The translations under genes were made by a program, and so were the position numbers. Positions 8,685 to 63,183 of a stretch of 64,000 bases of DNA are shown here, piece after piece. Each line of letters begins with the position of its first letter. Position 1 is the first letter of the stretch. Under the pieces are notes generated by a model. It was not told where the DNA came from and ran no database searches. It worked only from the letters and a program-made list of their open reading frames with translations. This DNA is from a virus: IMG/VR virus record IMGVR_UViG_3300050128_000053, positions 24,866 through 88,865 of that record; one strand, written 5' to 3'.

Positions 8685-9941
8685 CTAGTTGGTGTTTCCG
8701 ATTACCACGCTCCAATCTGTGATAAGTCCGAGGCCCCATATTGCATACCAGGCCAGAGCGTGCTCACGACCGAAGTCGAGGACCCCGCCGTCGCGCAGTT
8801 CCACCGGCAAGGAGATGGCATGCCCGAAGGCGTTGTCACCCAAGAAGATCGCCTGGTAGACGTTCTGTGGCGTGGCGGCCGAGCTGAGGAACGAGTTGAC
8901 CTGTGTGGTCTCGATGAACACGCAGTCGTACAGCCGGCCGATCTCTCCGAGGGCGAAGTTGCCCGGGGCAGCGTACTTGGTCACTTCGATGAACTCAGGA
9001 GTGTCACGCAAGCGACGGCTCTGAGCCGGGGCCACGAACGAGACATAGGTCTCGCCCAGTCGAGGCACGTTCTTCGACGCCAAGGTCAGAACAGCATCCT
9101 TGACCAGCGGCGGCGTGAAGTAGTACTGACCGCTCAAGCCCGTGGTCGAAGTGCCGACGGTGCCCTGATCATACGGCGAGAGCGTCGTACGCGGTGTGTC
9201 GTTGACCGTGGTGTTGTACCCGAAGATCACCGAACTGGCCAACAACAACGTGTTCCGCGCCGAGTAGTCGAGGTACTGGGCCATGTTGCGGCCGAGCAAC
9301 CGAGACGCCGACGCCATGACATCGTCGAAGGACGCATTCAGCAGCAGCTCGGTCACCGAGACGCCGAAGCCTTGCTCTGCCACCGTGATGGAGAACTGGC
9401 TGGCCGTCAGGGCCACGGTCTGCATGCGGACGCCTTCAACGAGCTGTGAGGCATTCGGCAGGTTGTTGTAGCGCATGAAGTTGATGGTGAGCCCAGGCTG
9501 AACACCTAGTTCCGTCTTCTTCACGGCGAACTGCTCGAAGCGCAGAATCGGCATCGCTTGGAACAAGATCTCTTTGGCAAACTGTTACCACCGTTTCCGG
9601 CGGGGTGATCATTTCTGTCACCCTCTGCAGATTTACCATCCCTGCAGATCGGACTGTATCTTCATCTTCAGCACCAGCACACTTCTCACCTAAGTGCTGA
9701 TCCTCTTGAAGATGTCTCCCGTGCAGTCTCTACGGAGTCCCAGGTGTTGGGTTCCCTCGGTATTCCCCTTTGTTGGCGGGGTTCACCGATACAGGGAGAT
9801 CATGATCTCATCGGTCACCCGATGAGACGGCCCTTATGTCGACCAAATTGTCTGGATTGCTTGTCCAAGCGTGCTATTGGCACCGGAATACCCGGTGGGG
9901 GAAGCGGCCAAATAAGGCGTCCCCGTCACGGCTGAGGGCAT
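8685..9941 (-). CDS. Major capsid protein (N4 gp56-like HK97 fold), spliced: exon 1 9941-9842, exon 2 9577-8685, 330 aa
   Basis: GGAGGT SD, then MPSAVTGTPYLAASPTGYSGANSTLGQAIQTIW-S-KEILFQAMPILRFEQF after intron removal. GEIGRLYDCVFIET and DFGREHALAWY motifs. Confidence 0.92.
9578..9841 (-). mobile_element. Group I self-splicing intron, 264 nt, no ORF
   Basis: 5' exon ends in U (TGGT|), intron ends in G (ACAGTTTG|CC AAA). R-like CGTAGAGACTGCACG and S-like AAGATACAGTCCGA give P7 GACTG/CAGTC. P2 GTCTCATCGG-GTGA-CCGATGAGAT; P3 TCTCCC/GGGAGA; P8 ATCTTCA/TGAAGAT. Removal restores the frame (100+893=993 nt). Confidence 0.93.
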
Positions 9942-10102
9942 GCAAATCACCTCCTGATGACTGATTGAAACTCTGAGTTGAGAGCTAGTTCATGCTCGCT
10001 CTCGTCAGCAGTCACCAGATTGTTTTCCAGATACGTATTCACAGGCCTATAATCAAAGCACTCATTTGCGCTCAAAACAAGTCAACTCAAAAAAGGTTCT
10101 TC

Positions 10103-10576
10103 TTAGGGGACTCGACCGCCGTATTTCCTTGAAACGCTGCGTGCCCATCTATCACCCTCGGGGGTTCTGACAGCGGAGTGTTGCGGCTTTAGGCGGGCCA
10201 TCGAGCGGCCCATGCCGTAAAGAGCTGATGCCACCCCCTGGCGCTCATGAGAGGGAGCCGTTTCGACCATGGAGATTTCGCCCTTTTTGTAGCCGCTATC
10301 AGGGCCTCCCTCGCTCCATTGCAGCATGGCACCGGGAAAGTGCTCATGAACCAAGGACCCACCTGCGGTCTCGGCCCACCGGTCAGTCGTAACGTGGTGG
10401 GAAGGCTCTGCCGAAAGCTGGTGGTAAGTATTGGCACCAAGCGGAATGGTGTCGGTTCGAAAGTGCCAACCCTGAGACAGCAGTTTGGCGCCGGGGTGAG
10501 CGTGCTCTTCTAGCCCGGGTAGAGCCATCTGATTCGGGTCGGCTCGCCAGAACTGCTGGCGAGAGAGGGAAGCCAC
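10103..10576 (-). CDS. GNAT-family acetyltransferase-like protein
   Basis: ISMVETAPSHERQGVASALY matches the acetyl-CoA-binding motif (R/Q-x-x-G-x-A). Confidence 0.7.
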   Translation of the reverse strand: MASLSRQQFWRADPNQMALPGLEEHAHPGAKLLSQGWHFRTDTIPLGANTYHQLSAEPSHHVTTDRWAETAGGSLVHEHFPGAMLQWSEGGPDSGYKKGEISMVETAPSHERQGVASALYGMGRSMARLKPQHSAVRTPEGDRWARSVSRKYGGRVP

Positions 10577-10599
10577 CTTGTGTCAACCCCCAATCAGTT

Positions 10600-11493
10600 T
10601 CACGGGGCGTAGATCCCCGCTTCCTTGGCTCGGGCGCTTACGGCACCGAGCAACTGGGGACGAAGACGGGAGTACTCCTCAGGCGACATGGCAGCCAGTT
10701 CCTCGTTGCTGAAGGTGACCTGCTGCTGATCGACCAAACCAGCCATATCGTAAGGCGGCATCCCAGACATCGGGAGACCAACCCGAGGCTGTTGCTGCTG
10801 CTGGCCAGTGCCACCGGCAGCAGCTTGAAACCCCTCAACGATCTCAGCCGTCTTCTGCGCCATCAAAGCCAAGGATGCTTCGATCTCCTCAGTGGTGTTG
10901 CCACGAACGAGATCATCGAACTGCGGCGCTATCTCGTCACGCATTTCAGCAATGCGCTGAACTCGGTACTGACCGAGCCGGGCCAACTCCTGCTCCTTTT
11001 GGAAGATGATCTGTTCACGCTTGCGCTCATCCTCGAGCTGAGCGAACCGGTGTTCCCAGGTCTGGTTGGAATCTTGAAGGCGCTGCTCGAGATCAAGATT
11101 CTTTAAGCGCTCGGCCTCAGCCTCGGCCTCAAGGCGCTGCTGCTCTTCTTGTTCGGCAGCAAGCCGAGCCTCACGGTCTTGGGCAAGAGTAGTTACCGTG
11201 CCGCGCAACTGCTCGAGTTCGGGATAGAGCTTGTCCTTCTCCTCGGCCCGAACATGACCCATCATCTCTTCGACCTGGGCTCTCGTAAAAACCTCTTCCT
11301 GCTGTTGCTGACTGCCGTTCGCAGCCGGCGGGACTCCTTGACCTTCGCCCCGCTCACCGACATTGATGGTGATCCCGGCCGGCGCACCGGGGATCCCTGA
11401 GGGGGAACCTTCGCCCGTCATTGACATTTGTGCATCTCCTTCTTCAGTTTGTCCAAGTAAGGCCACGTTACGTCGCTTGACAACAATCGTCAT
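10600..11493 (-). CDS. Capsid scaffolding protein
   Basis: Acidic coiled coil (VRAEEKDKLYPELEQL) with C-terminal LAAMSPEEYSRLRPQLLG; lies between portal and capsid genes. Confidence 0.8.
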   Translation of the reverse strand: MTIVVKRRNVALLGQTEEGDAQMSMTGEGSPSGIPGAPAGITINVGERGEGQGVPPAANGSQQQQEEVFTRAQVEEMMGHVRAEEKDKLYPELEQLRGTVTTLAQDREARLAAEQEEQQRLEAEAEAERLKNLDLEQRLQDSNQTWEHRFAQLEDERKREQIIFQKEQELARLGQYRVQRIAEMRDEIAPQFDDLVRGNTTEEIEASLALMAQKTAEIVEGFQAAAGGTGQQQQQPRVGLPMSGMPPYDMAGLVDQQQVTFSNEELAAMSPEEYSRLRPQLLGAVSARAKEAGIYAP

Positions 11494-11550
11494 TACCCAA
11501 TACCTCTCACTCCCAGCAACAGACTGCTGGGCACCATCACCTGATGCTAC

Positions 11551-14500
11551 TCAATCGTCGTCGCCCGATGAAAGCGGATTACGACGCTGCGGGATCTTGG
11601 TGCCGGCGGCAAGGGTGGTGAGCTGATTCATGATCGACTGGACCTCGGGAGTATCGGCAAACTGGGGCGGTGGCGCTTGTACACCGGCCGCTGTATTCAC
11701 GCCCGGGCCACCAGCCGAAGACACTCCCCCAGCGTCACCTCCAGGGGCAGGACCAGTCGACGATGGCGATGGCGGATCGGCACCATCAGGCGGTACCCCG
11801 GTAAGCATTGAAATGAGCACCCGGATCTGGGCATTCTGCAAATCGAGAGCACCTTGTTCAAGGGCATCTTGATGCAGTTCGTCCATAAGTTCCTGCAGCT
11901 TCTCGGCTGGATATTGCTCGCCCATGAGGCGCAGGGCCCCGGTCTTGGATTCAAGACCCATGCCCATTTTGAGCTGCAACTCATTGAGAAGGACCAGCAT
12001 GTCAAGCGGTAGCGGGGACTGGAACTCAACCGTATTGCGGTAAGTAATAGGGTCATTCGGGTCGAGAACCGTGACCTGACCCTCTTCAAGCGGTGGATCG
12101 CGCAACGGATCGATCTCGAGCATCTGGGGCAAATATGTCGCCGCCGTGAGGATCAACAACTCATTGAGCATGGCCAGGCCCGAAGACATCTGGGTCGTCT
12201 TTTGACGGAACTTTTGCATCAGCGGAAGGTATTGCAAAGAGAGCGCCACGCCCGATGTATTGCTGATCTGCTGTTCTTGGCCGAGCAAAGAAATGGGCAC
12301 ACCGACCAACTCGTGCATCTTCTCTTTGAGCAGTTCTAAAAACTTGATCGCCTCACCCAACTCAGCCCCGAGAGCGAGATTCTCAATCTTGGCCTTCTCA
12401 TTGGGGATGGACCATACCTTCTTGGGTCCCCGCTCGAGGCTGTTGGATTTCGCTCCCATGATGACTGTGGTGGGGGAGTTCCCGGTCCAATAGGTGTTCC
12501 CATTACGGCTCGCCATCCAAATGCTGTTTTTAACAGTTGGGCACCAGACGGTCACATCTTCAACATCGACCGTCTTTGCAGACTTCAATGTCGACTCAAC
12601 CTCAATCGATTGGCGGCTGTACTTGTCAATAAAGTTGCCTCGGGTATTGACCCGATCCCCCAACATCGCATTCAACATGCGATAACCCTCTTTACGAGCA
12701 CCGTCCTCCTGATACCACGAGCTTCGCTTTTCTGTAATCCAGTGGCCATCTGCATCAACAAGAATCTTCTGAAGCATTCGAGCTTGGGTGTACGTCAGCG
12801 AGTAAATAAAGGACGGGGAGAGTACCTTCTTAGGAGCGACCTCCTCCAAAGTCTCTTTCACCCCTTTACCCAGATACCAGTTATAACAGCCGTTATCCAT
12901 CGGCTTTGCCGATTCAGTAAAGGTGCCTCCACTGCGTTGCCAATACCGCATCAAACGTCGAATAGACCGCACATGGTCAGGGTTCTTTGTCCAACTCTGA
13001 CTTATGGTGATGGAGTGCCAATCATTCGGCCCGCTGTAGGCGTCACAACCTTCCGTGATATACCAGCCAACAGTCTCGACCAACTCGTCGTCCCACTTCG
13101 GCTGAGCTGCAAAAGCAAACGATGTCCCACCCCCCACCACCAAACGAGCATGAGACTTGAAATCAGCTAAAGCTGGTTCCTCAGCATCCCCAATCAAAGT
13201 TCGACCAATACGTCGAGCATCAAGTGGGTAGATCTGCTTTCTCGTCTTACGTTGCTCTACCAACCAGCGATGATTAGGGGTTACGAGGGCGTCAATGTGG
13301 TTAGACAGGTGAACGAGAGATCCCGTGTACGACTTGGAGAAAAGAGACTCGACCGGCTGCCATTCAATCTCATCAGTAGACGAGTTAAGAGTGAGGATCT
13401 CATCTCCAACAGTCAACTCGTCATGCTTCTTCCAACCCTCCGGAGTCAGAGCCAGGGTGGTCTCATCGACACAGGCGTAGTAATTAGTAATGTCCATCAG
13501 CAGGGTGGCCGTCTCGTTGTACGCCCGATTCAAGTCTGTGATGTCTTGGATGTCTGAAAGACCCCAAGGCGATGACGGCACCTTCTTGTTCGCTATGTGG
13601 ACGAAAGGAATGCGCCCCAAGGGGTTCTCTTGATCCTCCACCAACTCGTCATTGATAAAACTCTGCATCGAACTTTCAGTCCACAACTCGGTAAACGAGT
13701 TCCCTGTCCAATACGTACAGCCATTACGACGCGCAAACCAAGTACCAGACGGGGTCGTAGGACACCAAACTTTTCCTTGATAACCCTCCTCAGAAACATG
13801 AAGTCGCCTTGCCGTAATGTAAGGAGAATGGTAGACCGTTACGTTTGCGCAGTTATTCAAATCTCCACGCTTTTCTTTATGCTGCCTCCACCACTCTGAT
13901 GCATCACTCTTCCACCAATGGGTAAAGCTCCTCCTTCCGAGCATGGCAGTGAGCATTTGGAATCCGTCAATGAGGCCTTGATCTTGATTTATGAAGTTCT
14001 CCGTCTCAACAGTCCGCGTAAACCCATCGTGATTCCGAAGAACAGCGTAATGCCCATCCCCCTCAAGAAGGGTGTGGTAGAGAAGCTCTGCTTGATCCAT
14101 TGTAAGAGCACCAAGAAACTCTGGAGTCAGTGTCTTGTTCGGAGCAACTTGGCGAATAAGGTTGCCAATCCCGCTACCAAAATAGAACTGCCGACACCCT
14201 TCATACTTGGTTCCGTCATTGTAATCAGTATTGAGTTCTGTTGCAGTTGCCCCTTGCGCAGAAAATGCCTTCTGAAGATATCTGATGCGAGCGACCAAGT
14301 TGGGATTACTAGCCTCAGACTGACCAATCGTCACAGCAGTCTTTGCCGGAAACTTCGGGTAATGCCCTTCAGTAACAGCCCAACCAATAAGTTCAACAAA
14401 GTCGTCTGAAAAAGTTGGCCATTCTGCAAAGGAGGACAAATGCCCTCCAGCCGCAGCCCCAATAATCTGCTTGTTTGAGTGACCGGTGCTTAACTCTTCC

Positions 14501-16393
14501 GTTGTCATGAACCGAATGGGCCGATTTAAGTTCGGATAGGAATAACCATCCCGATCTCGGTATTCTACGAGCCACCGGTGATTTGGAGTCGAGAGGGCGT
14601 CCATTCGATCGGTCTGCCATCTGGTAAGTGAACCGTCCCAATCGAACACATTGACGGCTGTGTGCTCTTCCCAACGAACCTCGCGCGTCACAGGATCCAT
14701 CACAAGGAACTTGTCGTCGTCCTCGATGTTGTCCCAACGCTTCCAACCAGAAGACGTCAAAGCTTCAGTAGTTTCGTCCTGGCAAAATACTTGGCGGGTT
14801 CCCTCTAATGCCGTCCCCCAAAATCTGTACTTCATCTTGAACCGGATCACCCGAGTCATGTCGTGCGGGTGGTACATAACTCGGGGAAACAGTTCCCCGT
14901 AATGTAAACCGTATTACGGAAAATATTTCCCCTATCTGCACCAGCACCGCTTGCAGGAGTCACCTCCTTCCTGCGTGTGACCCATGTTCCTACAGAGGTG
15001 GTTGGGCACCATACTCGCCCTCTGTAGTGACGAACCGAACGATTCATCCATTTCATGTTCGCTGTCCGACTGTGATGCACCCCAACGGTGCCGTCTCGAC
15101 CTCCAAACTTTCCTCTAGGCGTATCAGAGACCTTTGAAATGCTTCGCTTGCCGAGCATCATGGCAAGCATTTGAAAAGAATCAATCAACCCGAGGTTGTT
15201 CTGGTAAAGACGCTCTCGACCGCCAATGCGTGCTGTCTCCCCATCCCCGTCGAGAAGTGTATTGAAAAGCAGTTCCGCTTGTGGGCGGGTGAGGTTTGTG
15301 AGGAAGCCTGAATCGATTTCCTTTTCCTCATGCAAAACGGCTTGGACCTGACGACCGATTGTTACCGGAAAATACCACTGAAGGAATCCGTCTGACCGCT
15401 CGTAAACAGACCCCTGAAAGTGGTGACAGAGCTTGTCAATACGTTCACAAAAGTCGGGATGAACACGAGGACTTTGCCCAACACAAACAGCCGAAGAATC
15501 AAACCAGCCTTCCGCAGCCACCCAACCCACCAGTTCTACAAACTCATCAGAGTGCTCTGGCATAGTCGGGAAATGCTTTAGTTCGCCGCCCGCCAAGACC
15601 AGAGACCCACCAGTCACCTCATGCAGCTCTGCTGTGGATCGCATCCCCCGGGTTCCACGCTCACCTGAGGTGTCATAGATCCATCGGTGGTCGGCCGTCG
15701 TGGCAGCACTGAAGTTCTTGCTACGCCATTCGTATAGGGGGCCGTCCCAGTCAAAAACGTTGATCCGCCCCACCCGAGACCAAACCAGCTCGTCGGTCTC
15801 GTAGTCAAGCACCAGAGCTTCGTCCCCAACTCTTACCTGATCAGCATTGAGCCAACCACGCTTAGTCAGGATTTCGTTCTCGTCGGCCGGCATGCAGAAA
15901 GCGCTGTTGAGCGGCAGGATGCGGATACGCGCCGGATGCTCATAACCCGCCGGATCGACAAATGATTCTTCGAAAGCCACCTTTACGAACGAGTCGCCTG
16001 ATACAGAAGATTGCTGCATAATTTCCCACATGACAGCGTCTTTGCCTTGGGGCTGATGCTCTTCCCAGATGGTACGCAGAAGCTCGGGGACAATGGCCTC
16101 AGTTGCTTTGGGCGATTTGAAGTAAGTGCCGTTGGTGAGGCAGAAGTTGGTCAAGAAGTCGCTAAAGGCAGCCGACCAGTTGAACGTGAGCTGAGGCTCA
16201 CCGATTTCGCGACGGTAGCTCCAATGATGGCCTAAGTAAAAAGCCCAGTTGCTGGCGTAGCGATTCAAGCGAGGTCCATGAACCTCGATCTAAACTCCTC
16301 ATCCGCTAACTCAACCAGGCCCAAGGGGCTGATGGCAATCGTTAGGTCTGAGGAGGCTGCACGGTAACTGGGTGTCACAAAACTAATGGCCAT
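11551..16393 (-). CDS. Portal protein (SPP1 gp6-like) with three inteins and two 5-nt frame-breaking insertions; about 581 aa mature if repaired
   Basis: Three frame segments: 16393-16292 (MAISF...LVELADEEF), 16286-14880 (EVHGPRLNRY...CFPE) and 14874-11551 (YHPHD...). Portal motifs ENPLGRIPFVHIAN, WGLSDIQDITDLN and ISNTSGVAL. Confidence 0.85.
12478..13473 (-). mobile_element. Intein 3 in portal (332 aa, LAGLIDADG-type)
   Basis: NYYA|CVDETTLALTPEGW...TPNHRW...VWCPTV...YWTGN|SPTT; VGWYITEG and LVDADG. Confidence 0.93.
13699..14784 (-). mobile_element. Intein 2 in portal (362 aa, LAGLIDADG-type)
   Basis: RQVF|CQDETTEALTSSGW...TPNHRW...VWCPTTPSGTW...YWTGN|SFTE; LIGWAVTEG and LLEGDG. Confidence 0.93.
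14892..15896 (-). mobile_element. Intein 1 in portal (335 aa, LAGLIDADG-type endonuclease domain)
   Basis: LNSAF|CMPADENEILTKRGW...TTADHRW...VWCPTT...ITGN|CFPE; LVGWVAAEG and LFNTLLDGDG helices. Confidence 0.92.
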
Positions 16394-16400
16394 TGTGCTT

Positions 16401-17075
16401 TCACCCCCTTCCCGGCTGAGACACGCTTTGCTTCCTAAGCTCACGCACTTTGTTGGCTATTTCCTTGCGCCGTTCCTCCGTGAACGGCCAACAGTTGCTC
16501 TTTCGGATATTGCACAGATCACACGAAGGCATAAGGTTATCAATCGTATGAGTTCCACCTGCTGTCAAGGGCTGATAGTGGTCCCAGTGGAGGTTGTTCG
16601 TCAGGAGCATCTCACAGATGTGACACCGCCCTCCAAACTCTGCAAGACGAAGGTCGAACTGTTCCGCTGAAATGACCTCAACCAAAGTGCCAGCCTTTAT
16701 GGCACGCCGTCTGCTCTCACATCGCTGCGTTGCCTTTCGGCGCTTCTCAGCGATCTCGGGTATTTTGCCTCGCTCAACATGGCGCTTGTAACGCTCTTCT
16801 CGATTGGCCACATGATGGACTCGAAGCCGCTCTTTCGACCACTCAGGGTGATCAATGTGGTATTGGCGTGCCTTAGTGATTTTGGTCGCCGGATCAGCAG
16901 CATAAATCTCTCGTGCTCGCTGATTACGCTTCTCTCGGCGGTTATCGTCAGTAACCTTCACACACAACTTACAACGGGGACGTCGTCCGTCTCTCGATGC
17001 AGAATCCTTGTGGAAATCAGTGAGTGGCTTGGAGATTCCGCACCCCTTGCAAACTTTCACATCAACTGCTGTCAT
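16401..17075 (-). CDS. Free-standing HNH endonuclease with N-terminal zinc finger
   Basis: CKGC...CKLC; CHIC...HWDHYQPLTAGGTHTIDNLMPSCDLCNIRK. Confidence 0.9.
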   Translation of the reverse strand: MTAVDVKVCKGCGISKPLTDFHKDSASRDGRRPRCKLCVKVTDDNRREKRNQRAREIYAADPATKITKARQYHIDHPEWSKERLRVHHVANREERYKRHVERGKIPEIAEKRRKATQRCESRRRAIKAGTLVEVISAEQFDLRLAEFGGRCHICEMLLTNNLHWDHYQPLTAGGTHTIDNLMPSCDLCNIRKSNCWPFTEERRKEIANKVRELRKQSVSQPGRG

Positions 17076-17094
17076 GGCGGCGGTCGTCCGCTTT

Positions 17095-17856
17095 TTACGG
17101 CGTGTCCACTCCGACCTTGGTGAATAGGGCGAACTGAGCAGCACTGATCGCTATGTCTGGGATGCCAGCCGAGGCAAACGCCGATAGATCGGCCGGGTCG
17201 GTGACGTGGGTGGCCACACCGCCCGAGACGAGGAACACCTCGTTGCCCTGCGTGGTGAGGAACATGGTCGGAACCTTTCTGTTTGGGACATGGGTGGGCG
17301 GTGGTGTCGGTGAAGTGAGCCCGAAGAGGGCATCGAAATCGGCCTGAGACCCCACCCAGTGCGAGGCGTCGACCTCCACTGGGATCCCCGGCACACTGAG
17401 TGAATCGGTGTACTGCCAGCAGTCCCCGAAGCCGTAGTCCTTGCCGTAGCTCGCCGGCCAGAGCATGGCCCTGATCCCTGACCGAGGCAGTGTCGAGGCG
17501 CTGCCGTAATCCATCTCTTCATCGGCGCTCAAGTTGAGAGCGACAAGGAAGGCGTTCTGCCACCCACTGTTGGTGCTGGTCTCCGAGTCAAGGATGCGAG
17601 CTTTCGATCCGGCGACTGATTTGAAGTAGGCCGCTTCATCTGAAGCACTGGTGAAATCGGCGAAGTGATAGGCCACGTGGGCGATGTTGTGCGATTCAGC
17701 AAGGGCGGCGGAATCGGAGTAATACGGGTTGGTGTAACCCGTCCCCTGTGTGGCCTTGATGATGAGAGCAAGGACGTTCTCAGAGATCAGAACCCAGTCC
17801 CAATCAGCAGGGTCGCCATTGTCAGAACTGATGTCGATGATGTTTGTTGCCGTCAC
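17095..17856 (-). CDS. GH25 muramidase (endolysin-like)
   Basis: IDISSDNG, IIKATQG, AYHFA, LDSE (DxE) and WQYT...VDAS motifs. Confidence 0.88.
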   Translation of the reverse strand: MTATNIIDISSDNGDPADWDWVLISENVLALIIKATQGTGYTNPYYSDSAALAESHNIAHVAYHFADFTSASDEAAYFKSVAGSKARILDSETSTNSGWQNAFLVALNLSADEEMDYGSASTLPRSGIRAMLWPASYGKDYGFGDCWQYTDSLSVPGIPVEVDASHWVGSQADFDALFGLTSPTPPPTHVPNRKVPTMFLTTQGNEVFLVSGGVATHVTDPADLSAFASAGIPDIAISAAQFALFTKVGVDTP

Positions 17857-24667: not shown

Positions 24668-25450
24668 CTACGGACGACCAGGCTCCGGCTTAACCCACAG
24701 TACTTCCACTCGATAGGCGCCCTTTTCTGTCTTCGGGGCCTTCATCACAACTCGGTTCCAAGAACCCAGCACGTCGTCGTAAAGCTCGTTTGCATATCCA
24801 CTAATGACCACGGGTCCAGGATGCGCTCTCAGCACCTTGAGCATAAGGATGTGATCCTCATCTGACATCTCGTCGCTGTACATGTGTTGTGTTCTCACTG
24901 AGTGAGGGTACGGCGGGTCCGCATAGATCAGGCAATCCGTCCCGCCGTGGCGCTCGATGACCTCCAAGGCACCACGGTTCTCAATCTCTGCATCTTTTAG
25001 ACGCAGCGCAAGTACACGCAATTGTTCGGGAACCTTGTTCCAACGATGCGACATGCCCTGCGCCCGCTGGCTTGGCCCTCTGTTCTTCCATCCTGTCTTC
25101 TTTGCGAGATCACTGGCGTGCGCCTGCCAACACCTCACGACAAAGCGGCGGGCTGATTCAAGCGGGTCTTCTGCGAGTTCATCGCAGCGGTTGTACTCGT
25201 CCCGTGACCACGGAGTCGTCTCAATCGCCCAGCAAAGATCGTCGCTCCGATCCCGCAACATCGTGAATAAGTTCGACACAAGACTGTTTCGGTCGTTGAT
25301 GATCTCGTGAGGAACGGGGGGCTTTGAGAAAAACACTGCACCGGAGCCAAAGAACGGCTCTACATAGTGGAAGTGTGGCTGGAACTGCTCCACGATCCTT
25401 TCTGCGAGCGTCCATTTCGCCCCCGGGTACCTAATTACCGCCGGATTCAT
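24668..25450 (-). CDS. DNA adenine methyltransferase (Dam/D12 class)
   Basis: YPGAKW, YVEPFFGSGAV, IIND, YADPPY and VVISGY. Confidence 0.92.
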   Translation of the reverse strand: MNPAVIRYPGAKWTLAERIVEQFQPHFHYVEPFFGSGAVFFSKPPVPHEIINDRNSLVSNLFTMLRDRSDDLCWAIETTPWSRDEYNRCDELAEDPLESARRFVVRCWQAHASDLAKKTGWKNRGPSQRAQGMSHRWNKVPEQLRVLALRLKDAEIENRGALEVIERHGGTDCLIYADPPYPHSVRTQHMYSDEMSDEDHILMLKVLRAHPGPVVISGYANELYDDVLGSWNRVVMKAPKTEKGAYRVEVLWVKPEPGRP

Positions 25451-62100: not shown

Positions 62101-62642
62101 TAGCCCTGCACCGACATCTTGCGACGGGGCGGCATTCCATACGTGGGCCGCAAAAGAGCAAGTTGTGACGCCCTGTGTTGATCTATTGTCAGGACGGAAG
62201 TAGAACCGCGTGGGGCGAGCTTGCCCTCAACCGTCGGCGTCGGCTGGAAGAACTGCAAAGACGGTGCTGCACGAAGTCCGGTAGTCGCTTCGGCGACCAA
62301 ACCACGCAAGGGGTTCTGCTGTTCAGGCCAGAGGTAGTCCCCCGGGTCAATCCTCTCGCCGAGGTGTACTCCTCTTTGGTAACCACGCTGGTTGATACGG
62401 GACTTGAGGGAATCGAAGAGGCGGTCCCCGCGTCGACTTGTAATTGTCCCGGGTCAAAGGTAGCCATCGGGATAGCTGGCTTCTGGTGTCCTGTTGTACA
62501 TCATCCGCCGGGCATCCAACACTGATCTAACCCACGGTTGGGGAGGCATTGATCCAACAGTTGCGCTTGGATTCATTGCTCCTGGGGAACCAGGAACATA
62601 GGTCTGTGAAAACCCAACACCTCCAGTGTTACTTCCGGCCAC
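62100..62642 (-). CDS. Conserved phage protein interrupted by an in-frame TGA within a probable 6-nt insertion (62451-62456)
   Basis: One frame reads MAGSNT...YPDGYL*PGTITSRRGDRLFDSLKSRINQRGYQRGVHLGERIDPGDYLWP...; both halves are otherwise intact and the stop overlaps the next ATG. Confidence 0.75.
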
Positions 62643-63183
62643 TTGGCATCACCTCCTTCCGATTCCTCTCGACAGTGCGAACTCGGTGGCAGTTTGCACA
62701 AACCACATCGCACTTCATGATCTCTTCCAACAATGCAACCCAACCAAATGAGGCACCTGATCGGATGTCAGCAACCTTCAGCGTACCGGGCAAGTGGTCA
62801 AAGTCCAAAGCGGCCCAGTGCTCGTTGTATCCACAGTCGGCACAGCCCTTTTCTATTTTGTAGGCCCGAACCCAGGCTTTGCGCTGGGCTCCTGATTTCC
62901 CAGGAGTAGATGAAGCTCGACCCTGGACATGCGGCGTGCCATATTTGCGATTCAACTTGTAATGTCGTGAACAGAAGCCGCCTCTGGCTTCTCGCAATGG
63001 GCACTCTTCTACACCACATTTACGGTCACCAGGCTCCGCTACAACGGGCCGCTGTCGATCAGCTACGCACTCTTTGCACCAACTGGCATAACGGTTGGTC
63101 TTGTTGATCCAGGCGAAATCGTTCAACATTTTCAGCTCGCCACACTTGGTGCACTTCTTGCGCACTTTCACGATGATGGTCAT
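62629..63183 (-). CDS. Free-standing HNH endonuclease with zinc fingers
   Basis: CTKC..CKEC, C...C...CSRHY, CADCG...ALDFDH...KCDVVCANCHRVRT. Confidence 0.88.
   Translation of the reverse strand: MTIIVKVRKKCTKCGELKMLNDFAWINKTNRYASWCKECVADRQRPVVAEPGDRKCGVEECPLREARGGFCSRHYKLNRKYGTPHVQGRASSTPGKSGAQRKAWVRAYKIEKGCADCGYNEHWAALDFDHLPGTLKVADIRSGASFGWVALLEEIMKCDVVCANCHRVRTVERNRKEVMPSGRK

Follow-up and report, generated by a model that had tools for sequence, protein, structure and literature searches.

The 64,000-nucleotide stretch studied here (hereafter the window; positions 24,866 to 88,865 of IMG/VR virus record IMGVR_UViG_3300050128_000053) is part of an 88,865-base record from an uncultured peat-soil phage, a fragment whose completeness CheckV puts at 63%. 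On its minus strand lies a portal protein gene that holds three predicted inteins and two groups of five extra bases, here called gap 1 and gap 2. Gap 2, four codons behind intein 1, is the subject of this work; comparison with related genes suggests that ribosomes probably pass it by a short-range hop. The parts of the gene are the following.

16393 to 11551, minus strand: whole portal gene
16292..16393, minus strand: portal codons 1-34
16287..16291, minus strand: gap 1, AGATC, five extra bases after DEEF, first in-frame codon AGA
15897..16286, minus strand: portal codons 35-164 (N-extein, gap 1 to intein 1)
14892..15896, minus strand: intein 1 (predicted), 335 amino acids, Cys1 to Thr-Gly-Asn, then Cys+1
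14880..14891, minus strand: C-extein codons for CFPE (TGT TTC CCC GAG), intein 1 to gap 2
14880..14882, minus strand: proposed take-off codon GAG (Glu, last residue of CFPE), from alignment with intact relatives
14875..14879, minus strand: gap 2, TTATG, first in-frame codon TTA, last three bases ATG in the resume frame
14872..14874, minus strand: proposed resume codon TAC (Tyr of YHPHD), from comparison with homologues
14850..14885, minus strand: 12-bp hairpin, minimum free energy -24.5 kcal/mol, z = -3.88
11551..14874, minus strand: rest of the portal frame, YHPHD to stop, matching SPP1_portal (E 5.2e-7)
14784-13699 and 13473-12478, minus strand: inteins 2 and 3, within the rest of the portal frame

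Read on the minus strand, ACG GGG AAC (the end of intein 1, 14894-14892) is followed by the CFPE codons, by TTATG and, from 14874, by TAC CAC CCG CAC GAC, which encodes YHPHD. YHPHD stands in a different frame from CFPE. Past gap 2 the zero frame gives LCTTRTT and stops after these seven sense codons at a TGA (14858-14856) that overlaps an ATG of the other frame (ATGA). This other frame, the resume frame (MYHPHDMTRVIRFK), is open for 13 codons upstream of gap 2, and the list of open reading frames (ORFs) contains one of 1108 amino acids that starts at the ATG of gap 2 itself (14877-14875). A first-pass annotation, made from the sequence alone, had described a 5-nt insertion four codons behind intein 1 that begins with TTA, leaves a zero frame (TTA TGT ACC) ending within seven codons and contains an ATG in the downstream frame. 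The sequence bears out each of these points, and the intact homologues agree on the insertion. The coordinates given at that time, 14850-14891, hold as the span of the hairpin and of CFPE; the extra bases themselves are only 14879-14875.

Gap 2 in independent assemblies and in related portal genes

The window derives from a metagenome assembly, and a sequencing or assembly artefact had to be considered. The 2.4-kb stretch around gap 2 was present in 24 public runs, which belong to 23 peat and permafrost studies, and the Logan contigs of four of these runs (X2, X4, X12 and X14) were compared with the window. In run X2, which comes from a different sample and study, contig record 8 (14567-15153) reproduced gap 2 and contig record 11 (15913-16675) reproduced gap 1, both with 0 differences and 0 gaps. 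Contig record 16 of run X4 (14763-14954), from yet another sample and study, crossed gap 2 likewise with 0 differences and 0 gaps. Both portal gaps were also kept in the RNA library X12 (record 1, 14653-15010, and record 3, 16238-16454, 0 differences), although RNA-library contigs may stem from carried-over DNA and rare processed forms would escape them. Removal of the gaps at the RNA level is unsupported, these contigs having retained both. Record 4 of X14 ends at 14883, 4 bases past gap 2, and was not counted as bridging it. The independent contigs of X2, X4 and X12 carry gap 2 unchanged, meaning that it is real DNA and not an assembly error, as the first-pass annotation had supposed. We found nothing that speaks for an artefact, and with sister gaps in many contigs from other samples we regard it as extremely improbable.

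Run X2 also contained a co-occurring relative (record 9), with 6 differences in 66 nt (14810-14875, about 91% identity) and a similar contig depth. This relative reads ...GGTAC straight into the PLNSAFCFPE coding sequence and is without intein 1, intein 2 and the five bases. Target and carrier alleles thus meet in one sample.

We then compared gap 2 with related portal genes. Locus scans with the 125-residue N-extein gave 72 viral-contig and 41 metagenome loci, and the 110 loci with a portal start reduced to 72 distinct N-termini. The nearest cultured relatives are BRock-like Streptomyces phages, whose portal is uninterrupted and shares 58-59% protein identity in the N-terminal part and 48% in the C-terminal part. 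No gapped portal was found among cultured phages, the N-terminal part being unbroken in all 6 matching Streptomyces phage records. In L004-L010, the closest intact relatives, as in the portal of Streptomyces phage pSt2308, [YW]HPHD follows immediately after CFPE or CFPT, and the nearest intact alleles (L004-L007, 82% identical) read ...PLNSAFCFPEYHPHD... When the five bases are removed, the window gives CFPEYHPHD, exactly the junction of the intact relatives (as in L005). From PLNSAF to [YWF]HPHD the distance is exactly 30 nt, in one frame, in 99 of the 102 loci covering the site; the remaining three (the window, L089 and L045) have the intein plus 5, 8 and 6 extra bases, respectively. The YHPHD-type motif itself is present in all 102 loci scored by it. 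Gap 2 is thus a noncoding insert whose flanks are contiguous in homologues and behind which the homologous sequence resumes exactly, as expected of bypassing. The junction that the first-pass annotation had predicted, LNSAFCFPE(Y/F)HPHD, is the one encoded by intact relatives, and a hop leading to it would fit the comparative data best.

The spacing of the N-terminal part of the portal was also fixed. From the start codon to LG[HY]HW it is exactly 153 nt in 57/57 intact distinct alleles in which the motif was found (3 more are without it), and 157-164 nt, i.e. +4 to +11 nt, in the gapped alleles (n = 12). This fixed spacing indicates that the portal segment tolerates no amino-acid insertion, which counts against readthrough or frameshift products with extra residues. 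Antonov et al. used the same no-added-residue reasoning for phage phiHau3 (PMC10732093).

The identification of intein 1 is a prediction from its sequence. The 335-residue insert is in frame, absent from homologues, starts with Cys1, ends with Asn followed by Cys, and shows Hint-fold similarity. A profile of 8 related inserts matched only solved inteins (10/10, best E 6.8e-5), with weak Hint_2 matches in 2/8 profile members; intein 1 had no above-threshold match in Pfam, PHROGs or NCBIfam. For its central domain, the nearest ESM Atlas clusters are LAGLIDADG homing endonucleases (score 0.94, with 181-184 features in common). This is a lead that falls short of a test, and it hints that intein 1 could carry an active endonuclease. 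The portal inteins form a related set of three (identity to intein 1 29-38%) that Pfam, PHROGs and NCBIfam all fail to recognise. Each ends in Thr-Gly-Asn, the usual C-terminal ending of inteins being His-Asn. A second intein in L129 (L129:1501-3453) lies right after RFWG, whereas intein 2 of the window lies after RQVF, so that the portal offers several neighbouring intein sites.

A family of short gaps and its homing elements

Gap 2 belongs to a series of 20 short gaps in this phage family, of 4 to 43 nt (lengths 4, 5, 6, 7, 8, 9, 11 and 43). Eight lengths are multiples of three, five are of the form 3n+1 and seven of the form 3n+2. In all 20, the first codon after the gap is again in the homologous frame. 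Apart from the site behind intein 1, the N-terminal 52 portal codons form a second hot spot. Each gap is given below as take-off codon, gap and resume codon.

Window, behind intein 1 (gap 2): GAG, TTATG, TAC
L089, behind intein 1: GAG, TAACTAAG, TAC (8 nt, same position as in the window)
L129, behind intein 1: GAA, TAGCCCGTA, TGG (9 nt)
L045, behind intein 1: CCG, TAGCTG, GAG (6 nt, one codon upstream of the window site)
L128, behind intein 1: CCG, TAGGTACCG, GAG (9 nt, matched CCG codons)
L127, behind intein 1: CCA, TTACCT, CGC (6 nt)
Window, N-terminal (gap 1): TTT, AGATC, GAG
L008, N-terminal: TTC, TGAATC, GAG (same site as gap 1 of the window)
L045, N-terminal: CTT, TGACCGCCC, GCC (9 nt)
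L128, N-terminal (L128:1484-1494): GAA, CATACCCCGTA, GAG (11 nt)
L128, N-terminal (L128:1510-1552): CAC, 43 nt, GGA
L010 (= L090), N-terminal: TAC, TGAAC, GCC
L089, N-terminal: TAT, TGAAC, GCC
L111, N-terminal: TAC, AGACCCTGA, GCG
L114 (= L115, L116), N-terminal: AAC, TAGC, TGG
L118, N-terminal: AAT, TAGC, TGG
L125, N-terminal: AAT, TAGT, TGG
L122, N-terminal: TGG, TGAATGC, GCC
L117, N-terminal: TGG, ATACAAACTGA, TTT
Window 62451..62456, minus strand (third gap, in another conserved gene): CTT, TGACCC, GGG (6 nt, in-frame TGA), from comparison with the G004 homologue

The third gap of this genome (62456-62451) became apparent from comparison with the 101-kb relative G004, which reads GFLGTIT where the window reads GYL*PGTIT. 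The gene that carries it is conserved and without an assigned function. This gap and the 9-nt N-terminal gap of L045 have 'CTT TGA CC' in common.

The first in-frame codon of the gap is a stop (TGA, TAG or TAA) or one of TTA, AGA and ATA in 18/20 cases. The two exceptions are the N-terminal gaps of L128, which lie within 70 nt of each other and are led neither by a stop nor by a rare codon. Most sister gaps are led by a stop codon and not by TTA. In the 61 long ORFs of this genome TTA is the rarest sense codon (2.3 per 1000), with ATA 3rd and AGA 4th; in 53 intact portals (26,271 codons, 61 sense codons) TTA is again the rarest (0.4 per 1000), with AGA 3rd and ATA 4th. Bypassing calls for a stop or a rare, 'hungry' A-site codon beside the take-off codon, and gap 2 presents TTA there. 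Because in-frame gaps are detectable only through their stop, the first-codon test was limited to gaps that are not multiples of three, grouped into events; a stop or rare first codon was found in 7 of these 9 events (P about 6e-6 if 7/64 triplets qualify).

For the landing side we compared the last triplet of each gap with the take-off codon, the 20 gaps being grouped into 14 events by our own judgement of homology. The triplet matches the take-off codon at two or more of the three positions in 10/14 events, compared with 2.6 expected (permutation, P 3e-5). Two matches are perfect, CCG/CCG and CAC/CAC, both in L128. In L117 and L111 a TGA of the resume frame stands immediately before the resume codon, so that decoding can restart nowhere but at that codon. 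The gaps L128:1484-1494 and L129:1966-1974, although at unrelated sites, both have the take-off codon GAA and both end in CCCGTA (landing GTA); this common end may be due to chance or to a preferred landing context of tRNA-Glu. In the 43-nt gap of L128, which has matched CAC codons, the take-off codon is followed immediately by a 14-bp stem with a CC-UUCG-GG cap.

The gaps are closely associated with homing elements, and for gap 2 this element is intein 1. A query with intein 1 itself returned three further intein-1 alleles (L127, L128 and L129), each gapped at the same place. Altogether, all six intein-1 alleles are gapped 3-4 codons behind the intein and none of the 99 loci without the intein is (Fisher P 6e-10, with loci that are not all independent). 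The intein 1 of L089 is 73% identical to that of the window. We saw no gap behind same-family inteins at other sites (inteins 2 and 3 of the window; the site-2 inteins of L106, L115 and L136; five in other proteins). Gap 2 thus shows, through intein 1, the genetic linkage to a homing-endonuclease element that is expected of bypassing, and the two appear to travel as one unit.

Free-standing nuclease genes are found beside other gaps. Those of the window are:

16401..17144, minus strand: free-standing HNH endonuclease gene, directly upstream of the portal gene (Pfam HNH E 7e-6; PHROGs endonuclease VII/HNH families)
62629..63183, minus strand: HNH endonuclease gene, directly upstream of the third-gap gene (phrog_2255 E 4.7e-32)

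The HNH gene of L008, in the same place as that of the window, is 64-66% identical to it. In L089, L111, L114/L115 and L122 an Endonuclease_7 gene lies directly upstream of the portal (E 1e-16 to 1e-24). In L010/L090 only the last 30 or so codons of the endonuclease VII gene remain (L010:1-142, L090:858-987) and the 5-nt gap TGAAC is kept; the gene is intact in L089. No nuclease gene was found upstream of the portal in L045, L116, L117, L118 and L125. Taking the longest frame that ends within 400 nt upstream of the portal start, and leaving L128 out of the count, a nuclease was present in 6/12 gapped and 0/60 distinct intact alleles (Fisher P 6e-6; the alleles are related, so that independence is overstated). 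A motif search of the whole L128 locus gave no nuclease. The HNH gene near the third gap, which lies about 170 nt behind it, is unrecognised by Pfam.

A further insert was seen in the major capsid protein gene of the window, at 9625-9848 on the minus strand, where Rfam RF00028 matches a group I intron with 40.3 bits (E 1e-7), a score under the gathering score of 50. The inserted stretch is about 258 nt long, contains stops, and its flanks match the uninterrupted capsid gene of G004 (IWS/KEILFQ). The Rfam scan of 9300-17200 gave nothing beyond this intron.

We also asked whether the gapped genes are under selection. The pairs window/L008, L010/L089 and L114/L118 each have a gap in common, and their synonymous sites are saturated (pS 0.63-0.89). 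In these pairs pN/pS was 0.06-0.16 upstream of the gap and 0.20-0.39 downstream, showing purifying selection on both sides of the common gaps. This bears on the idea that nuclease attack on a defective or helper-dependent genome left the gaps behind as repair scars and that this gene makes no portal. In favour of such a dead allele are the two frame breaks and three inteins within a single gene, the fragmentary record, and the intein-free, gap-free relative in X2, which could in principle supply the portal in trans. However, different samples and studies yielded the identical sequence, both flanks of gaps common to diverged genomes are under purifying selection, and the first codon and last triplet of the gaps are non-random; decay does not predict the first-codon rule, the landing rule or purifying selection. 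Moreover, no other disruption was found: besides the three gaps, each internal stop that we inspected among the 128 G004 frames with a match in this genome preceded a start codon or sat in a low-identity match judged to be off-frame. We therefore think it improbable that the portal allele is non-functional.

The hairpin and the decoding of gap 2

The hairpin described in the first-pass annotation, where it served as the main argument, is present: its 5' arm, CCCGAGTTATGT (14885-14874), pairs with its 3' arm, ACATGACTCGGG (14861-14850), forming 12 bp, one of them G-U, around a 12-nt loop. The 5' arm contains the CCC codon, the take-off codon, gap 2 and the first base of the resume codon; the 3' arm, past that codon, belongs to the coding sequence. 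For a 65-nt stretch around the hairpin the folding energy is -24.5 kcal/mol (z = -3.88 versus 200 dinucleotide-preserving shuffles). No unusual fold was found at 14 other tested gaps (z -1.4 to +0.8; +0.77 in L089 at the same site, +0.75 in L045, -1.4 to +0.4 in the other 12), a set outside which the 43-nt L128 gap stood. The covariation that the first-pass annotation had proposed as a check did not materialise, since the fold does not recur in relatives and the near-identical X2 and X4 strains, without differences across the stem, are uninformative. We considered that the five bases might have arisen by templated quasi-palindrome repair, as they extend an existing 7-bp stem; this explanation does not generalise, the 8-nt gap at the same site in L089 being unrelated. 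By eye, no AGGAG-like sequence was seen just 5' of GAG at gap 2.

The ATG inside gap 2 raises the possibility of a split portal. In that case the first chain would end at the TGA after ...CFPELCTTRTT, and a second chain would start at the ATG 14877-14875 (MYHPHD...) or at the ATGA (MTRVIRFK...) and assemble with it non-covalently. A resume-frame ATG stands directly before TAC, the resume frame is open for the 13 codons before gap 2, an in-frame ATG overlaps the zero-frame stop, and the 1108-residue ORF is called from the gap ATG, all of which would suit reinitiation. Yet no Shine-Dalgarno-like sequence precedes this ATG (by eye), and it lies within the 12-bp stem. A start at the second ATG would lose YHPHD, which all scored loci keep, and the N-side fragment would end in seven unrelated residues. 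The sister gaps point in the same direction: there is no resume-frame ATG, GTG or TTG in L089 (8 nt, same position) or in L045 (6 nt, one codon upstream), and the gaps at this site in L128 and L129 are also without a start codon, as read from the printed sequences. In only 2 of the first 15 gaps a canonical start codon stands in the resume frame (gap 2, and TTG in gap 1 of L089). Altogether, a portal made of two chains seems unlikely.

A frameshift that adds residues is the other way to join the two frames. A -1 slip on T_TTC_CCC (pattern X XXY YYZ), stimulated by the hairpin, would give CFP-RVM-YHPHD, and a -1 or +2 shift at GAG-TTA would give CFPE-VM- or CFPE-L-YHPHD. The heptamer conforms to the formal pattern, with a strong stem after it; the resume frame is open across the site and the hungry TTA could promote a shift. 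But the stem begins inside the heptamer (a spacer of about -3), so that the arrangement of heptamer and downstream structure is not the expected one, the usual bacterial spacer being 5-6 nt (PMC10732093). The products would add 1-2 residues, the heptamer product 2, where 99/102 loci keep a fixed spacing. In L089, at the same site, the zero frame meets an immediate TAA and the resume frame is closed three codons upstream, which makes the heptamer route impossible there. Finally, three length classes cannot obey one frameshift rule. We thus give residue-adding frameshifting only a small chance.

Two further ways of reading through the gaps were rejected. Suppressor or odd tRNAs encoded by the phage would require tRNA genes, and ARAGORN found none in the window and none elsewhere in the 88,865-base record. 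An alternative genetic code does not suit the 12/20 gaps whose length is no multiple of three; in addition, the remaining frames inspected among the 128 G004 frames with a match in this genome were open under table 11.

The reading that we favour, and consider probable from the comparison of sequences, is that gap 2 is passed by short-range translational bypassing. Peptidyl-tRNA(Glu) would sit on GAG in the P site with UUA, the rarest sense codon of the phage, in the A site, and slow decoding of UUA would stall the ribosome. The peptidyl-tRNA would then release the take-off codon, the mRNA would slip forward by five bases and decoding would resume at UAC, giving ...LNSAF-[intein 1]-CFPE-YHPHD... 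Protein splicing would then yield the junction of the intact relatives, with the expected junction ...LNSAFCFPEYHPHDMTR. Across the series, a stop or starved A-site codon would be followed by a slide of 4 to 43 bases, after which the tRNA would re-pair, often at only two of three positions. Bypassing covers all 20 gaps, because readthrough fits only multiple-of-three lengths, one frameshift rule fits one length class, and reinitiation lacks a start codon at most sites. What the sequences show is a real gap that recurs in independent samples, is kept in RNA-library contigs, lies in a gene under purifying selection and is one of a series of common design; that ribosomes hop it, how efficiently they do so and what the hairpin contributes are inferred.

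Several points weigh against bypassing at gap 2. Its take-off and landing triplets, GAG and ATG, agree at one of three positions, among the poorest matches of the series, and the matched codons expected of bypassing are lacking. The hairpin is unique to this genome and not kept in the sister gaps, and inspection by eye found no Shine-Dalgarno-like element common to these gaps. The poor landing match and the resume-frame ATG inside a strong hairpin set gap 2 apart from its sisters; with this ATG, and with a second in-frame ATG overlapping the zero-frame stop, reinitiation is possible. The TTACCT insert of L127 is in frame, has no stop and could simply encode Leu-Pro. To make one portal chain, ribosomes would have to hop twice and the protein to splice three times. 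An intein already interrupts its target site and would not obviously need a protective gap 9-12 bases downstream. The rarity of TTA is read from the codon usage of the phage and not from a host tRNA pool. On the side of the evidence, the gaps are supported by assembled contigs and not by raw reads, the RNA-library contigs have the carry-over limit mentioned above, and the hop is proposed from sequence comparison.

Gap 2 compared with known bypassing systems

Known bypassing comprises T4 gene 60 as its single classical case, one mitochondrial system and, in phiHau3, an actinophage candidate that has been partly tested. The last is the nearest to gap 2. In the large terminase gene of the Streptomyces phage phiHau3 there are two 10-nt blocks led by UUA, and two Streptomyces prophages have 7-nt blocks, with strong local structure (Smith et al. 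2013, as cited in Antonov et al. 2023, PMC10732093). The junction peptide was detected by mass spectrometry, from an E. coli construct whose gap started with UAA instead of UUA, and a regulatory link to bldA and the host life cycle has been proposed (PMC10732093). Like phiHau3, the window has a short, frame-disrupting block led by UUA in an essential, conserved phage morphogenesis gene, with flanks that are adjacent in relatives free of the insert, strong local RNA structure around UUA, and a protein segment in which added residues are argued to be intolerable. The closest cultured relatives of this phage also infect Streptomyces. The two cases differ in that gap 2 is 5 nt long instead of 7 or 10, lies in a portal instead of a terminase gene and stands four codons behind an intein, and in that most of its sisters are led by a stop codon.

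In T4 gene 60, the 50-nt bypass insert travels with the MobA homing endonuclease and protects its carrier from nicking. Homologues have a stop or hungry codon, some are without the nuclease and yet keep the gap (Manning and Atkins 2022, 10.1101/2022.08.31.505936), and the take-off stem-loop has a conserved CC-UUCG-GG cap at its tip (10.1101/2022.08.31.505936). The present gaps resemble gene 60 in being noncoding inserts in a conserved coding segment, mostly with a stop or hungry codon after take-off, and in being linked to a homing element, the nuclease being lost with the gap retained in L010/L090. At gap 2 the take-off codon also lies in the 5' arm of a stem-loop, though the 14 other gaps tested show no such fold. 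Unlike gene 60, gap 2 is ten times shorter, has no matched landing codon and no sequence homology to it, leaves no room for an in-gap Shine-Dalgarno sequence or AU-rich tract and has no known nascent-peptide signal; its linked element is an intein and not a free-standing HNH gene. A design much nearer to that of gene 60 is seen, in an unrelated gene, in the 43-nt gap of L128 (matched CAC, 14-bp stem, CC-UUCG-GG). By analogy with T4 MobA and gene 60, gap 2 may have originated as an interruption of a nuclease recognition sequence in a protein segment that does not tolerate insertions.

The mitochondria of Magnusiomyces capitatus have 81 'byps' sites in one genome (PMC5009743), and landing on two of three positions has been noted in yeast mitochondrial bypassing (Atkins et al. 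2016, PMC5009743). As with byps, many short inserts are found here in conserved genes, with an unused or slow codon in the A site; the difference is that the present sites are bacterial and phage-borne, number three in this genome and are linked to homing endonucleases, whereas byps are mitochondrial. Synthetic 'stop-hops' and hungry-codon hops were described in E. coli (Weiss et al. 1987; Gallant and Lindsley 1998; as cited in PMC5009743, PMC10732093 and 10.1101/2022.08.31.505936). Gap 2 would likewise be a hop of a few bases over a slow A-site codon, but it is natural, fixed and in an essential gene, unlike these low-efficiency constructs with matched codons.

Full-text searches, mostly judged by title and abstract opening, found no gap linked to an intein or to a portal gene. 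Relative to the literature on phiHau3, gene 60 and byps, gaps of 4-5 bases, the portal as target, a large natural series and the constant intein company of gap 2 are new. The natural series of 20 gaps, with its varied lengths, take-off codons, landing triplets and ties to homing elements, provides comparative data on what a ribosome hop requires, to which gap 2 contributes an intein link and a UUA-led gap that is just five bases long.

If the hop is true, gene callers that split or discard such genes need correction, and short 'frameshifts' in essential phage genes beside homing elements would be signals and not errors. We tentatively go one step further and propose, as a possibility that falls a little short of being likely, that intein 1 and its gap form a composite mobile unit, 'intein plus micro-bypass', without described precedent. 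Any homing element that targets the portal (free-standing HNH, endonuclease VII or intein) would bring or select an untranslated gap of 4-43 nt that shields an insertion-intolerant segment, and host ribosomes would hop such gaps routinely, needing little beyond a slow A-site codon and landing pairing at two of three positions. If this were so, bypassing would be a common and evolvable answer to homing nucleases, and not a T4 curiosity.

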